Source: Escherichia coli
GTDB taxonomy: Bacteria > Pseudomonadota > Gammaproteobacteria > Enterobacterales > Enterobacteriaceae
Assembly: GCF_003334405.1 (NCBI RefSeq)
Contig: NZ_QOWM01000006.1
Reading direction: 5' to 3' (one strand)
Length of the DNA: 64,000 nucleotides
The notes beneath the pieces are model-generated. The model worked only from the letters and a program-made list of their open reading frames with translations. It ran no database searches and had not been told where the DNA came from. A program made the translations under genes and the position numbers. This document shows, piece by piece, positions 21,334 through 61,154 of the stretch. The number at the start of each line of letters is the position of its first letter. Position 1 is the first letter of the stretch.

Positions 21334-21347
21334 GTTGACTCCTTCGT

Positions 21348-21530
21348 GCCGGATGCGCTTTGCTTATCCGGCCTACAAAATCGCAGCGTGTAGGCCTGAT
21401 AAGACGCGCCAGCGTCGCATCAGGCGTTGAATGCCGGATGCGCTTTGCTTATCCGGCCTACAAAATCGCAGCGTGTAGGCCAGATAAGACGCGTCAGCGT
21501 CGCATCAGGCGTTACATACCGGATGCGGCT
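21348..21530. repeat. BIME: two tandem ~85-bp units (each a pair of inverted REPs) plus a partial third REP
   Basis: Unit gccggatgcgctttgcttatccggcctacaaaatcgcagcgtgtaggcctgataagacgcgccagcgtcgcatcaggcgtt... repeated at 85-bp period. Confidence 0.75.
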
Positions 21531-30178: not shown

Positions 30179-30213
30179 TTTGCACCTCAAAAAAGAGTGG
30201 CAAAGGACTTGAG

Positions 30214-30306
30214 AAGGAGCCTCAAATCCCTTCGCCGGCGTTATCCGGATCAGGTTCGACGGGTATTTTCTCAGCGCACGCGTACGCGTGGCACCCCGTT
30301 GAGAAC
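30214..30306 (-). promoter_or_regulatory. sroA: TPP (THI-box) riboswitch in thiBPQ leader (sroA)
   Basis: Minus strand contains CUGAGA...ACCCGUCGAACCUGAUCCGGAUAACGCCGGCGAAGGGA, the conserved TPP aptamer core; boundaries approximate. Confidence 0.8.
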
Positions 30307-30341
30307 GGCGTTAGTGTAGTGATTTTGTTATCAACCAGCAA

Positions 30342-31997
30342 TCATGGATCCGGTGGCGCAAACCACGCTGATTTAAAATCGAACCAGCCGAGGGTATTCA
30401 TGCGCAGGCCGCGCATACTGCGTTGCCCCTGAATGATCAGCCAGTGGTGCAATAATGGCACCATCGCTTTGCTGGCGACCAGTTGCTGGCACCAGTTCGC
30501 CAGATTCATCTCGCCATTGCGCCAGCGAGCAGCGTCGGCTTGCCAGTCAATGGGAATGCAATGTTGTAGCAGTGGCACTTCGCATAAATGTGCGAAAACA
30601 GAGAAGTCCAGCGGCAGGGTAAAGTTGGCGCTGTTTAGCCAGATATCACTTTCGATCTCTCCTGTATGCCACTGATCGTAGTCGATCTCTTTGATTTTCA
30701 GCGTGACCTGGTGACTTGCCAGAATCTGCTGCATGATCCCGGCAATCACCCGATGCTCACTGTGATCCTGATAAAAGGTTAGGGTGAGGCTTTCCAGGCC
30801 AGCCGGTTTTTCGCTCTTTATGGTGCGGGCATGGTGCCAACGGGGGAGCAGTCCATAAGCCGGGAACCACAGTTGCTGGTACTGTTCCTCAGCGAAATAG
30901 ACCAGATTAGTTGGAGAAAGCACATAGCTTACCCAGTCCCTGACTTGCTGATTCGCCCCGCGATGGGTGCGGCTGTCGAACAGTAAATAGTAGCAACCTT
31001 CCTCCAGGCGGCTTTCAATCTCTTTTTCCTCGCCCTGTGGACCTTTTAGCATCAGCCCTCCGGCTGGCTCGTCGGCAATTTCCGGCAGAACCCAGACGTT
31101 AACTTCGTCGATTAATGCCCGGTAACCGAAGAAGTCATCGAATGCCTGAATTTTCAGTTGATTGGTGCTGTTGCGAATCACCGCATACGGACCGGTGCCG
31201 ATGGGATGGCTGGCAAAGTTACTGAGGGTTTCCCATTCGCGCGGCAGGATCATCGCCGGAACTTGCCCCAGCAGTAACGGTAACCAGCGGTCCGGTTGCG
31301 TGAGATGGATATCCAGCGTCCAGGGCGTCGGCGACACAATGTCAGCAATATGCGAATAGAGCGGCAGCGTATTGATTCGTTTTAAAGAGGCGATCACATC
31401 GTCCATTTCCAGTTCACGACCATGGTGAAAATGGACTCCTGGACGCAAAAAGAAACGCCAGTGAAGCGGTGAAATTTGCTGCCAGTGGTGGGCGATGTCT
31501 GCTTCCAGTTCCCCATTTTCCTCATTTATGCGCGTTAGCGAACTGAAGATTTGCCGGGCGATATGGGTTTCGGAACGGCGCAATGCGCTGCCAGGTAGCA
31601 GATTACGCAACGGACGATAGTAGAGCACGCGCAGGATGTGCCGCCCCTGGCGGAAGCTGCGGCCCAGATGAGAAACCAGCATTTGCCGCACAGTCGCTTT
31701 GTCGCCAACCAACTGCACCAGTTGATCGATACGATCCTGCTCTAGCAGGTCTTCCGCCCGCTGTTGCTGAAGCGCCAGCCCGGTATAGAGGAATGTCAGA
31801 CGCGAGCGTTTACCGCGCCCGACTTCCGCTTCCCACGTCAGCCAGCCGCGATCCTGCATGGTGTTGAGCAGGGTGCGCATATGACGACGCGAGCAGCTCA
31901 ATAACGCTGCCAGTTCGTTGAGCGTTGTGTCCTGCGATTTACCCTCGCAGCATTGCCACAGGCGGATGAACTGTTGTTGCAGACGAGCAGATGGCAT
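30342..31997 (-). CDS. sgrR: sugar-phosphate stress transcriptional regulator SgrR
   Basis: 551-aa product [45 protein letters not shown]... with N-terminal HTH and solute-binding-like domain. Confidence 0.92.
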
Positions 31998-32052
31998 AAA
32001 AGGGGAACTCCTGTGCAAAAGACAGCAATTTTATTTTCCCTATATTAAGTCA

Positions 32053-32291
32053 ATAATTCCTAACGATGAAGCAAGGGGGTGCCCCATGCGTCAGTTTTAT
32101 CAGCACTATTTTACCGCGACAGCGAAGTTGTGCTGGTTGCGTTGGTTAAGCGTCCCACAACGATTAACCATGCTTGAAGGACTGATGCAGTGGGATGACC
32201 GCAATTCTGAAAGTTGACTTGCCTGCATCATGTGTGACTGAGTATTGGTGTAAAATCACCCGCCAGCAGATTATACCTGCTGGTTTTTTTT
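32053..32291 (+). ncRNA. sgrS: SgrS dual-function small RNA (glucose-phosphate stress)
   Basis: Divergent from sgrR; contains the sgrT ORF; 3' end is hairpin ccagcagattatacctgctgg plus U8; 5' end approximate. Confidence 0.8.
32086..32217 (+). CDS. sgrT: SgrT 43-aa peptide (inhibitor of PtsG transport activity)
   Basis: MRQFYQHYFTATAKLCWLRWLSVPQRLTMLEGLMQWDDRNSES encoded within the sgrS transcript. Confidence 0.85.
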   Translation: MRQFYQHYFTATAKLCWLRWLSVPQRLTMLEGLMQWDDRNSES

Positions 32292-32318
32292 ATTCTCGCC
32301 GCGCTAAAAAGGGAACGT

Positions 32319-33497
32319 ATGATCTGGATAATGACGATGGCTCGCCGTATGAACGGTGTTTACGCGGCATTTATGCTGGTCGCTTTTATGATGGGGGTGG
32401 CCGGGGCGCTACAGGCTCCTACATTGAGCTTATTTCTGAGTCGTGAGGTTGGCGCGCAACCTTTCTGGATCGGCCTCTTTTATACGGTGAATGCTATTGC
32501 TGGGATCGGCGTAAGCCTCTGGTTGGCAAAACGTTCTGACAGTCAGGGCGATCGGCGAAAACTGATTATATTTTGCTGTTTGATGGCTATCGGCAATGCG
32601 CTATTGTTTGCATTTAATCGTCATTATCTGACGCTTATCACCTGTGGTGTGCTTCTGGCATCTCTGGCCAATACGGCAATGCCACAGTTATTTGCTCTGG
32701 CGCGGGAATATGCGGATAACTCGGCGCGAGAAGTGGTGATGTTTAGCTCGGTGATGCGTGCGCAGCTTTCTCTGGCATGGGTTATCGGTCCACCGTTGGC
32801 CTTTATGCTGGCGTTGAATTACGGCTTTACGGTGATGTTTTCGATTGCCGCCGGGATATTCACACTCAGTCTGGTATTGATTGCATTTATGCTTCCGTCT
32901 GTGGCGCGGGTAGAACTGCCGTCGGAAAATGCTTTATCAATGCAAGGTGGCTGGCAGGATAGTAACGTACGGATGTTATTTGTCGCCTCGACGTTAATGT
33001 GGACCTGCAACACCATGTACATTATTGATATGCCGTTGTGGATCAGTAGCGAGTTAGGATTGCCAGACAAACTGGCGGGTTTCCTGATGGGGACGGCAGC
33101 TGGACTGGAAATACCAGCAATGATTCTGGCTGGCTACTATGTCAAACGTTATGGTAAGCGGCGAATGATGGTCATAGCAGTGGCGGCAGGAGTACTGTTT
33201 TACACCGGATTGATTTTCTTTAATAGCCGTATGGCGTTGATGACGCTGCAACTTTTTAACGCTGTATTTATCGGCATTGTTGCGGGTATTGGGATGCTAT
33301 GGTTTCAGGATTTAATGCCTGGAAGAGCGGGGGCAGCTACCACCTTATTTACTAACAGTATTTCTACCGGGGTAATTCTGGCTGGCGTTATTCAGGGAGC
33401 AATTGCACAAAGTTGGGGGCACTTTGCTGTCTACTGGGTAATTGCGGTTATTTCTGTTGTCGCATTATTTTTAACCGCAAAGGTTAAAGACGTTTGA
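32319..33497 (+). CDS. setA: sugar efflux transporter SetA (MFS)
   Basis: 392-aa 12-TM ORF MIWIMTMARRMNGVYAAFMLVAFMMGVAGALQAPTLSLFL... Confidence 0.92.
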   Translation: MIWIMTMARRMNGVYAAFMLVAFMMGVAGALQAPTLSLFLSREVGAQPFWIGLFYTVNAIAGIGVSLWLAKRSDSQGDRRKLIIFCCLMAIGNALLFAFNRHYLTLITCGVLLASLANTAMPQLFALAREYADNSAREVVMFSSVMRAQLSLAWVIGPPLAFMLALNYGFTVMFSIAAGIFTLSLVLIAFMLPSVARVELPSENALSMQGGWQDSNVRMLFVASTLMWTCNTMYIIDMPLWISSELGLPDKLAGFLMGTAAGLEIPAMILAGYYVKRYGKRRMMVIAVAAGVLFYTGLIFFNSRMALMTLQLFNAVFIGIVAGIGMLWFQDLMPGRAGAATTLFTNSISTGVILAGVIQGAIAQSWGHFAVYWVIAVISVVALFLTAKVKDV

Positions 33498-38269: not shown

Positions 38270-38302
38270 TAAAAAAACCCGCGCAATGGCGCGGGTTTTT
38301 TG
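38270..38302 (-). terminator. leu operon attenuator (intrinsic terminator between leuL and leuA)
   Basis: Minus strand cccgcgccattgcgcggg hairpin followed by TTTTTTT. Confidence 0.7.
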
Positions 38303-38319
38303 TTTGACTGCGTGCTGGC

Positions 38320-38406
38320 TTAATGCTGGATGCCGCTCACTCGTCTACCGCGCAAAGAAGATGCGTTTAGTAGTAGTAGACCGATAAAGCGAACGATGTG
38401 AGTCAT
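38320..38406 (-). CDS. leuL: leu operon leader peptide
   Basis: 28-aa [28 protein letters not shown] with four consecutive Leu codons upstream of the attenuator. Confidence 0.9.
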
Positions 38407-38589
38407 TAAATCAGCTCCAGATGAATGCGATATGCTTTTAGAGTTACTGGATACAAAAACGGATGTCAACCCTGACGCAATAAAAACGTCCCGCCAGCGT
38501 GAGTTCTGCATCCGTAAAATTAGCTAATTGTGCTGCGGTGGTTAAAGTAAGCGATATTAATTTCTGCTTAACTACCGACGCTTTTCATC

Positions 38590-58683: not shown

Positions 58684-59942
58684 TCAAGGCGACGGACAGA
58701 AAACTGGTAGTAGGACTGGAGATTGGTACCGCGAAGGTTGCCGCTTTAGTAGGGGAAGTTCTGCCCGACGGTATGGTCAATATCATTGGCGTGGGCAGCT
58801 GCCCGTCGCGTGGTATGGATAAAGGCGGGGTGAACGACCTCGAATCCGTGGTCAAGTGCGTACAACGCGCCATTGACCAGGCAGAATTGATGGCAGATTG
58901 TCAGATCTCTTCGGTATATCTGGCGCTTTCTGGTAAGCACATCAGCTGCCAGAATGAAATTGGTATGGTGCCTATTTCTGAAGAAGAAGTGACGCAAGAA
59001 GATGTGGAAAACGTCGTCCATACCGCGAAATCGGTGCGTGTGCGCGATGAGCATCGTGTGCTGCATGTGATCCCGCAAGAGTATGCGATTGACTATCAGG
59101 AAGGGATCAAGAATCCGGTAGGACTTTCGGGCGTGCGGATGCAGGCAAAAGTGCACCTGATCACATGTCACAACGATATGGCGAAAAACATCGTCAAAGC
59201 GGTTGAACGTTGTGGGCTGAAAGTTGACCAACTGATATTTGCCGGACTGGCATCAAGTTATTCGGTATTGACGGAAGATGAACGTGAACTGGGTGTCTGC
59301 GTCGTCGATATCGGTGGTGGTACAATGGATATCGCCGTTTATACCGGTGGGGCATTGCGCCACACTAAGGTAATTCCTTATGCTGGCAATGTCGTGACCA
59401 GTGATATCGCTTACGCCTTTGGCACGCCGCCAAGCGACGCCGAAGCGATTAAAGTTCGCCACGGTTGTGCGCTGGGTTCCATCGTTGGAAAAGATGAGAG
59501 CGTGGAAGTGCCGAGCGTAGGTGGTCGTCCGCCACGGAGTCTGCAACGTCAGACACTGGCAGAGGTGATCGAGCCGCGCTATACCGAGCTGCTCAACCTG
59601 GTCAACGAAGAGATATTGCAGTTGCAGGAAAAGCTTCGCCAACAAGGGGTTAAACATCACCTGGCGGCAGGCATTGTATTAACCGGTGGCGCAGCGCAGA
59701 TCGAAGGTCTTGCAGCCTGTGCTCAGCGCGTGTTTCATACGCAAGTGCGTATCGGCGCGCCGCTGAACATTACCGGTTTAACGGATTATGCTCAGGAGCC
59801 GTATTATTCGACGGCGGTGGGATTGCTTCACTATGGGAAAGAGTCACATCTTAACGGTGAAGCTGAAGTAGAAAAACGTGTTACAGCATCAGTTGGCTCG
59901 TGGATCAAGCGACTCAATAGTTGGCTGCGAAAAGAGTTTTAA
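58680..59942 (+). CDS. ftsA: cell division protein FtsA (actin-like ATPase)
   Basis: 420-aa [34 protein letters not shown]... Confidence 0.95.
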
Positions 59943-60002
59943 TTTTTATGAGGCCGACGATGATTACGGCCTCAGGCGACAGGCACAAATCGGAGAGAAA
60001 CT

Positions 60003-61154
60003 ATGTTTGAACCAATGGAACTTACCAATGACGCGGTGATTAAAGTCATCGGCGTCGGCGGCGGCGGCGGTAATGCTGTTGAACACATGGTGCGCGAGCG
60101 CATTGAAGGTGTTGAATTCTTCGCGGTAAATACCGATGCACAAGCGCTGCGTAAAACAGCGGTTGGACAGACGATTCAAATCGGTAGCGGTATCACCAAA
60201 GGACTGGGCGCTGGCGCTAATCCAGAAGTTGGCCGCAATGCGGCTGATGAGGATCGCGATGCATTGCGTGCGGCGCTGGAAGGTGCAGACATGGTCTTTA
60301 TTGCTGCGGGTATGGGTGGTGGTACCGGTACAGGTGCAGCACCAGTCGTCGCTGAAGTGGCAAAAGATTTGGGTATCCTGACCGTTGCTGTCGTCACTAA
60401 GCCTTTCAACTTTGAAGGCAAGAAGCGTATGGCATTCGCGGAGCAGGGGATCACTGAACTGTCCAAGCATGTGGACTCTCTGATCACTATCCCGAACGAC
60501 AAACTGCTGAAAGTTCTGGGCCGCGGTATCTCCCTGCTGGATGCGTTTGGCGCAGCGAACGATGTACTGAAAGGCGCTGTGCAAGGTATCGCTGAACTGA
60601 TTACTCGTCCGGGTTTGATGAACGTGGACTTTGCAGACGTACGCACCGTAATGTCTGAGATGGGCTACGCAATGATGGGTTCTGGCGTGGCGAGCGGTGA
60701 AGACCGTGCGGAAGAAGCTGCTGAAATGGCTATCTCTTCTCCGCTGCTGGAAGATATCGACCTGTCTGGCGCGCGCGGCGTGCTGGTTAACATCACGGCG
60801 GGCTTCGACCTGCGTCTGGATGAGTTCGAAACGGTAGGTAACACCATCCGTGCATTTGCTTCCGACAACGCGACTGTGGTTATCGGTACTTCTCTTGACC
60901 CGGATATGAATGACGAGCTGCGCGTAACCGTTGTTGCGACAGGTATCGGCATGGACAAACGTCCTGAAATCACTCTGGTGACCAATAAGCAGGTTCAGCA
61001 GCCAGTGATGGATCGCTACCAGCAGCATGGGATGGCTCCGCTGACCCAGGAGCAGAAGCCGGTTGCTAAAGTCGTGAATGACAATGCGCCGCAAACTGCG
61101 AAAGAGCCGGATTATCTGGATATCCCAGCATTCCTGCGTAAGCAAGCTGATTAA
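60003..61154 (+). CDS. ftsZ: cell division GTPase FtsZ
   Basis: 383-aa ORF with tubulin signature GGGTGTG. Confidence 0.97.

Follow-up and report, generated by a model that had tools for sequence, protein, structure and literature searches.

The element under study is the canonical, experimentally characterised sgrS/sgrT gene of the K-12 type, which is already known and adds no new biology. It lies within a window of 64,000 nucleotides of Escherichia coli DNA, to which all coordinates below refer, and the locus as a whole is almost certainly the K-12 form of the E. coli module for glucose-phosphate stress, sgrR / sgrS-sgrT / setA. Among Gram-negative bacteria, SgrS/SgrT is the founding case of a single RNA that encodes a protein and also base-pairs with mRNAs. 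The copy described here serves as a positive control, its defining features having been recovered from raw sequence: a single terminated transcript (32065-32291) holds both an ORF (32086-32217) and a base-pairing seed (32231-32252), the combination that defines a dual-function sRNA. The features of the locus, with the evidence for each in brackets, are as follows.

30342-31997, minus strand: sgrR, activator of sgrS, 551 aa (ORF, NCBIfam, annotation of MG1655 b0069)
31998-32064, no strand assigned: sgrR-sgrS intergenic region, 67 bp, with divergent promoters and SgrR-responsive sequences (MG1655 identity, PMC2760817)
32052-32057, plus strand: candidate -10 hexamer AATAAT, matching TATAAT at 5 of 6 positions, 7 nt before +1 (putative, read from the sequence)
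32065-32291, plus strand: sgrS RNA, 227 nt (Rfam RF00534, identity with MG1655 b4577)
32075-32085, plus strand: 5' hairpin GGGGGTGCCCC, which sequesters the sgrT Shine-Dalgarno and inhibits sgrT translation (sequence, fold, PMC2760806)
32086-32217, plus strand: sgrT CDS, 43 codons and TGA (translation, Pfam, RefSeq annotation)
32231-32252, plus strand: seed region (SgrS nt 167-188) with complementarity to the Shine-Dalgarno region of ptsG (duplex scan, allele conservation)
32247-32260, plus strand: small hairpin GGUG/CACC (predicted fold; Hfq role from PMC4021124)
32262-32291, plus strand: intrinsic terminator with 8-bp stem, 7-nt loop and U8; Hfq-binding 3' end and partial setA attenuator (sequence, Rfam terminal helix, literature)
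32319-33497, plus strand: setA, sugar efflux transporter (ORF, TIGR00899)

Identity and extent of sgrS

Identity, anatomy, ptsG complementarity and allelic relationships of the element are observations on the sequence itself. A scan of the whole window with Rfam 15 matched RF00534 (SgrS) at 32065-32291 on the plus strand with 228.8 bits (E 2.7e-64; gathering score 37 bits), and the match spans positions 1-232 of the 232 in the model, i.e., it is not truncated. For transfer of annotation, the window was aligned on E. coli K-12 MG1655 45303-109302. In this alignment 227 of 227 nt of sgrS equal MG1655 b4577, and the MG1655 annotations fall exactly on the window features sgrS (32065-32291), sgrT (32086-32217), sgrR (30342-31997) and setA (32319-33497). 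The identity to the K-12 gene settles the membership of the element. The sequence-only reading had recognised sgrS with an embedded sgrT as a known system, and had proposed an Rfam scan and an alignment to the annotated genes as checks; the full-length match and the identity with b4577/b4662, at coinciding coordinates, bear this out. The 5' end is the exception. That reading had let the RNA begin at 32053, whereas both the annotated and the Rfam 5' end are at 32065, and the 12 nt further upstream belong not to the transcript but to the promoter, in its -10 region.

The gene order is the canonical thiB-sgrR/sgrS-setA-leuD. Across the surrounding 4.5 kb there are 2 SNPs relative to MG1655, both synonymous (one in sgrR, one in leuD) and neither in sgrS. 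All four features by which Horler and Vanderpool (2009; PMC2760817) recognise SgrS homologs are present, namely an own promoter divergent from sgrR (here judged by its sequence only), a small SgrT-like ORF, a region complementary to ptsG, and a terminator about 10 nt past the pairing region. The predicted fold of the 227-nt RNA has an energy of -79.2 kcal/mol, which corresponds to z = -3.4 relative to 200 dinucleotide-shuffled sequences. The minimum-free-energy structure of the full transcript hides part of the seed in a long-range helix, unlike the centroid fold and the published models. None of the analyses reported here yielded evidence contradicting the canonical sgrS/sgrT assignment.

sgrR and the divergent promoter region

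The divergent arrangement that had been claimed from the sequence is found: sgrR occupies 30342-31997 on the minus strand, and its product matches the NCBIfam equivalog NF010149 with 1126.8 bits (cut-off 476). The SgrR protein is the same as in MG1655, the one SNP in the gene, at 31743, being synonymous. Between the sgrR ATG (31997) and the sgrS +1 (32065) lies a spacer of 67 bp, equal to that of MG1655 and with one difference to a divergent, CFT073-like allele. The spacer is known to be highly conserved and to be needed for sgrS activation, and the start site of sgrS has been mapped experimentally in MG1655 (PMC2760817). SgrR activates sgrS in glucose-phosphate stress (PMC4021124).

By inspection of the sequence, the candidate sgrS promoter consists of the -10 hexamer listed above without a good -35 element. 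A weak -35 is expected of an activator-dependent promoter. A consensus promoter scan proposed AAGACA-16-TATATT (32019-32046) instead; this candidate was rejected, as it implies a +1 near 32053, the start in the sequence-only reading, whereas annotation and Rfam both put the 5' end at 32065. A minus-strand site that resembles a promoter (32254-32227) scores no better than chance and was likewise discarded. A search of the sgrR-sgrS spacer for SgrR operator repeats gave only a 6-nt ATAAAA/TTTTAT inverted repeat, which is too short to be called an operator.

The base-pairing region

The segment between the ORF and the terminator had been assigned to base pairing, and the assignment holds. Predicted duplexes were computed in 24-nt sliding windows against ptsG -40..+15, with the leader sequence taken from MG1655, as ptsG lies outside the window. 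SgrS nt 167-188 pairs with ptsG -29..-8 at -27.8 kcal/mol in a duplex that includes the AGGAG Shine-Dalgarno sequence; for 200 shuffled SgrS sequences the best window averages -18.2 kcal/mol (sd 2.7), and 0 of the 200 reach -27.8. In addition, a block that includes most of this segment is kept at 26 of 27 positions in a divergent allele (see below). The positions of the seed mutations G176C/G178C, which abolish ptsG pairing, fall within the computed segment; the pairing is known to mask the ribosome-binding site of ptsG (PMC2760806; PMC4021124). The coding and pairing parts of SgrS are separate, with the ORF ending at 32217 and the seed beginning at 32231.

A duplex of the full-length SgrS with 133 nt of ptsG (RNAduplex, -59.6 kcal/mol) was dismissed: its internal loops are very large, and equally good values arise in 416 of 500 shuffles. 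With manX (-40..+60) or the manX-manY spacer as target, the sliding-window scan chose SgrS nt 152-180, the right part of SgrS, although in this crude scan 36 of 100 and 39 of 100 shuffles, respectively, are as good; this does not speak against the published sites. Regulation of ptsG mRNA by SgrS is Hfq-dependent and involves decay by RNase E; manXYZ is repressed and yigL stabilised by SgrS (PMC4021124, PMC12612679, PMC3901232).

The 3' hairpins, the terminator and setA

The terminator consists of the stem arm GCCAGCAG, the loop ATTATAC and the arm CTGCTGGT at 32262-32284, with 8 pairs of which 5 are G-C, and a run of exactly eight T at 32284-32291. The terminator string ccagcagattatacctgctgg + U8, quoted in the sequence-only reading, is found verbatim at 32263-32291. 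The same reading called the terminator strong; stem and U8 look strong, but published work reports a partial block only (PMC4509938, PMC9765468). The spacer from the seed end (32252) to the terminator measures 9-10 nt. Judged by sequence, a putative Hfq-binding module is present, made up of two hairpins, the small one and that of the terminator, and of a tail with at least 7 U; such a module, i.e., a small hairpin and a terminator with its U tail, is known to bind Hfq (PMC4021124, PMC4509938).

In unstressed cells, about 50% of the transcripts made from plasmids read through the sgrS terminator, and stress makes termination more efficient. Hfq binding is lost in RNAs that continue past the terminator; the functional species, bound by Hfq, is the terminated RNA (PMC4509938). 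When the terminator is deleted, setA-lacZ goes up by only 1.6- to 1.8-fold (PMC4509938, PMC9765468). The setA gene is co-transcribed with sgrS and starts 27 bp past the terminator (PMC9765468). In the window, the same spacing of 27 nt (32292-32318) separates the U8 tail from the setA start, and the setA product matches TIGR00899 (sugar efflux transporter, 602.6 bits). The ORF list and the consensus promoter scan detected no separate setA promoter between the sgrS terminator and setA.

sgrT and its 5' hairpin

The sgrT ORF begins with ATG at 32086 and ends with TGA at 32215-32217, encoding the 43-aa product MRQFYQHYFTATAKLCWLRWLSVPQRLTMLEGLMQWDDRNSES. The ORF of 43 codons thus lies wholly inside the short transcript (32065-32291), as had been proposed, and the loss of the reading frame, named beforehand as an observation that would speak against sgrT, is not seen on translation. 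The peptide matches Pfam PF15894 (SgrT) with 49.5 bits and E 3.5e-13 (residues 3-37 against positions 1-36 of 46 in the model); an NCBIfam search of the peptide matched no model. The gene is annotated as sgrT in RefSeq genomes, and its MG1655 counterpart is b4662.

Directly upstream of the start codon, the GGGGGTGCCCC hairpin alone has a predicted fold of -4.5 kcal/mol, versus -0.2 for the variant with GGAGG in place of GGGGG, a gap of about 4 kcal/mol. Mutagenesis of C19/C21 established that this inverted repeat inhibits sgrT translation in K-12 (PMC2760806). Since the window has an ATG but also the 5' hairpin, a low SgrT output is expected.

This raises the question of whether an allele of the K-12 type acts, for practical purposes, as a base-pairing riboregulator only, with sgrT nearly silent behind a blocked ribosome-binding site. 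The reading is possible but rather unlikely. It agrees with the stability of the hairpin at 32075-32085, with the very low SgrT output of the native E. coli allele (PMC4021124), and with the finding that stressed cells are not rescued by K-12 sgrS whose seed is inactivated, partial rescue being obtained with C19/C21 hairpin mutants that make more SgrT (PMC2760806). On the other hand, the ORF is intact with an ATG and matches the Pfam SgrT family; only 2 of SgrT residues 1-37 are changed in the divergent allele, and frame and stop are kept through a stretch that is 43% divergent. Moreover, K-12 SgrT made ectopically inhibits PtsG (PMC2760806; PMC3901232), and a low output is not zero. A nearly silent sgrT has real support, but the difference to the dual-function sgrS/sgrT assignment is one of degree and not of kind, since the intact ORF is conserved and gives a functional product upon expression.

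A further suggestion is that the GGGGGUGCCCC hairpin may be a conditional switch that frees SgrT synthesis upon some signal, rather than a simple defect. We regard this as improbable; an unknown regulator of the hairpin was raised as a possibility by the authors of PMC2760806. The hairpin is found in about a quarter of complete E. coli genomes, and each exact match to the window that was examined has setA as well. If it were true, E. coli populations would hold functionally distinct stress modules: one with hairpin and setA, one with neither hairpin nor setA, and one with an ATT start in sgrT.

Alleles across complete E. coli genomes

Of 5426 complete E. coli genomes, 5400 have the locus once, as judged with a 341-nt query around sgrS, and the annotated genes are sgrR / sgrT / setA. 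The remaining 26 complete genomes have no match to the locus, and 3 of the 5400 matching records are labelled plasmids. The count bears on a reading in which the element is a chance short ORF next to a chance hairpin in an intergenic spacer. Short ORFs of 20-40 aa are indeed abundant in the region, but this reading can be discarded entirely in view of the Rfam and Pfam matches (E 2.7e-64 and E 3.5e-13), the single copy in nearly all genomes, and a ptsG pairing beyond that of 200 of 200 shuffles.

The K-12-like 3' half of sgrS occurs in about 3240 complete genomes, and setA is present in 12 of 12 such records listed. A divergent sgrS allele (90-95% identical) occurs in about 2156 genomes (about 40%). 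Its match stops just after the terminator, and in 8 of the 8 divergent-allele records listed setA is absent and leuD is directly next. These genomes are informative with respect to a third alternative, namely that the segment is mainly a 5' leader or attenuator of setA and the short RNA a by-product of premature termination. Such a role would suit the start of setA 27 nt past the U tail, the failure to detect a promoter between them, and the read-through described above, as well as the small gain of setA-lacZ upon deletion of the terminator. However, one divergent allele that was aligned keeps both seed and terminator; sgrS with seed and terminator kept where setA is absent implies that the sRNA is maintained independently of setA. 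In addition, it is the terminated RNA that is bound by Hfq and functional (PMC4509938), and published data on seed mutants and compensatory mutants contradict an inactive terminated SgrS. We therefore consider the leader reading very unlikely and retain the assignment as an sRNA gene that is co-transcribed with setA where setA is present.

For the comparison of alleles, the locus of E. coli FDAARGOS_536 (3001-3345) was aligned with the window (31990-32330). By segment, this one divergent allele compares with the window allele as follows.

SgrS nt 1-132: 3 substitutions, and 1 in the 5' leader
sgrT 3' end: 12 of 21 positions identical
Linker: 4 of 7 identical
Seed block, nt 161-187: 26 of 27 identical, with flanking segments at 40-57%
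Small stem-loop: 4 of 10 identical
Terminator stem arms: 15 of 16 identical
Terminator loop: 2 of 7 identical

The lone change in the terminator stem turns a G-U into a G-C pair. The small stem-loop of the divergent allele still folds, albeit from other sequence (UGGUG...CGCCA versus GGUG/CACC). SgrT has the same length and stop in both alleles; residues 1-37 show 2 differences, and the C-terminus has 5 differences in the last 6-7 residues. Such a pattern would be expected under selection on the seed, the SgrT core and both 3' hairpins. As a separate observation, the divergence between the alleles begins abruptly near SgrS nt 125-133, inside sgrT, and the break looks like a recombination or indel boundary.

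The forms of the 5' hairpin were counted by megablast with 40-nt probes that have the polymorphic base in the middle. A central mismatch abolishes the required exact word of 28 nt, and the probes thus tell GGGGG from GGAGG. The GGGGG (hairpin) form is found in 1426 of the 5426 complete genomes (about 26%), the GGAGG form in 3856. These counts over 5,426 genomes update a figure from 2009, according to which no more than 3 of 15 strains of E. coli have the inhibitory 5' inverted repeat (PMC2760817). Among the genomes with GGAGG, 347 (about 6%) carry one further mismatch to the probe and may share an ATT start: in the one of the 347 that was examined, E. coli strain 472 (NZ_CP018245.1, locus 279-281), ATT replaces the sgrT ATG. 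A change in the start codon of sgrT to ATT has been described for O157:H7 (PMC2760817). We note that RefSeq still annotates an sgrT CDS in strain 472 (WP_001248768.1), under the same accession as in strains with an ATG start.

Comparison with known systems

Relative to E. coli K-12 MG1655 sgrS (b4577) and sgrT (b4662), the element has no difference; the flanks (sgrR, setA, leuD) and the 5' hairpin are also the same. The CFT073 / O157-type allele of E. coli shares with the window the length of 227 nt, the seed (26 of 27), the terminator stem and a 43-aa SgrT. It differs in having GGAGG for GGGGG, a replacement that results in the lack of a stable 5' hairpin and in an improved match to the Shine-Dalgarno consensus. 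The SgrT end, the linker, the small stem-loop and the terminator loop are divergent, and setA is absent, with leuD next.

Salmonella enterica SgrS/SgrT, for which the comparison draws on the literature only, likewise has a 5' sgrT, a conserved seed of about 13 nt, a terminator and a divergent sgrR (PMC2760817, PMC4021124). Unlike the window allele, it has an SgrT of 40 aa and lacks the inhibitory 5' hairpin, leading to more SgrT; its spacer from seed to terminator is 22 nt versus about 10 nt, and it has sopD as an extra target. Other RNAs that also combine pairing to mRNAs with a coding function, as described in PMC12612679, PMC8915982 and PMC8672173, are RNAIII/hld (S. aureus), SR1/SR1P (B. 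subtilis), AzuCR (E. coli) and VcdRP (V. cholerae). These have no sequence kinship with SgrS. In AzuCR, according to PMC8915982, the coding and pairing segments overlap, in contrast to SgrS, where they lie apart.

Proposed mode of action

Induction by SgrR, dependence on Hfq and RNase E, binding of SgrT to PtsG and read-through into setA are taken from the literature on the identical K-12 RNA and would apply to the window allele as well. Upon accumulation of sugar phosphates, SgrR would activate the divergent sgrS promoter, and transcripts that end at the terminator (32262-32291) would constitute the sRNA of 227 nt that binds Hfq. In this sRNA, nt 167-188, which are single-stranded, are predicted to pair with the ptsG Shine-Dalgarno region, and the RNA would also act on manXYZ, yigL and other targets. 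The pairing would block ptsG translation and trigger decay by RNase E, leaving fewer glucose transporters. The same RNA presumably serves as mRNA for the 43-aa SgrT, which would bind existing PtsG and stop transport; SgrT is known to bind EIICB-Glc (PMC3901232, PMC12612679). In the window allele, the GGGGGUGCCCC hairpin over the ribosome-binding site probably holds the output of SgrT low. Read-through transcripts would lose Hfq binding and act as setA mRNA.

Other elements in the window

Outside the element, the window is collinear with MG1655 downstream of 21347, with 5 SNPs, and has small indels upstream of this position. The first 21.5 kb are 99.88% identical to MG1655 with two gap openings, and a direct comparison in register breaks near 13821, in the yabP region. 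In the araD-araA spacer (21347-21527), MG1655 appears to have one REP-containing unit of about 85 nt more than the window. An Rfam match to naRNA4 (21393-21458, minus strand; 60.2 bits versus a gathering score of 59.5) sits on REP elements.

A further Rfam match, to PssrA ("Plasmid-encoded Shigella sRNA A", RF02797; 105.5 bits), is located at 59922-60011 on the plus strand. The site is chromosomal: it runs from the final 21 nt of ftsA through the ftsA-ftsZ spacer into the first ftsZ codons, opposite the MG1655 antisense RNA StfZ. A comparison of the PssrA stretch with PLSDB gave 9 matches, of which the 8 listed are all E. coli records of 0.4-4.9 Mb that resemble mislabelled pieces of chromosome; no Shigella plasmid with the stretch is among these 8. 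The family name therefore appears misleading for the ftsA-ftsZ locus.

Two leader elements were also recovered. A TPP riboswitch (RF00059, 65.9 bits) lies at 30209-30308 on the minus strand, upstream of thiBPQ and directly downstream of the sgrR stop; its site coincides with MG1655 SroA (30214-30306). The leucine operon leader (RF00512, 145.8 bits) is found at 38271-38420 on the minus strand together with leuL, upstream of leuABCD as expected.
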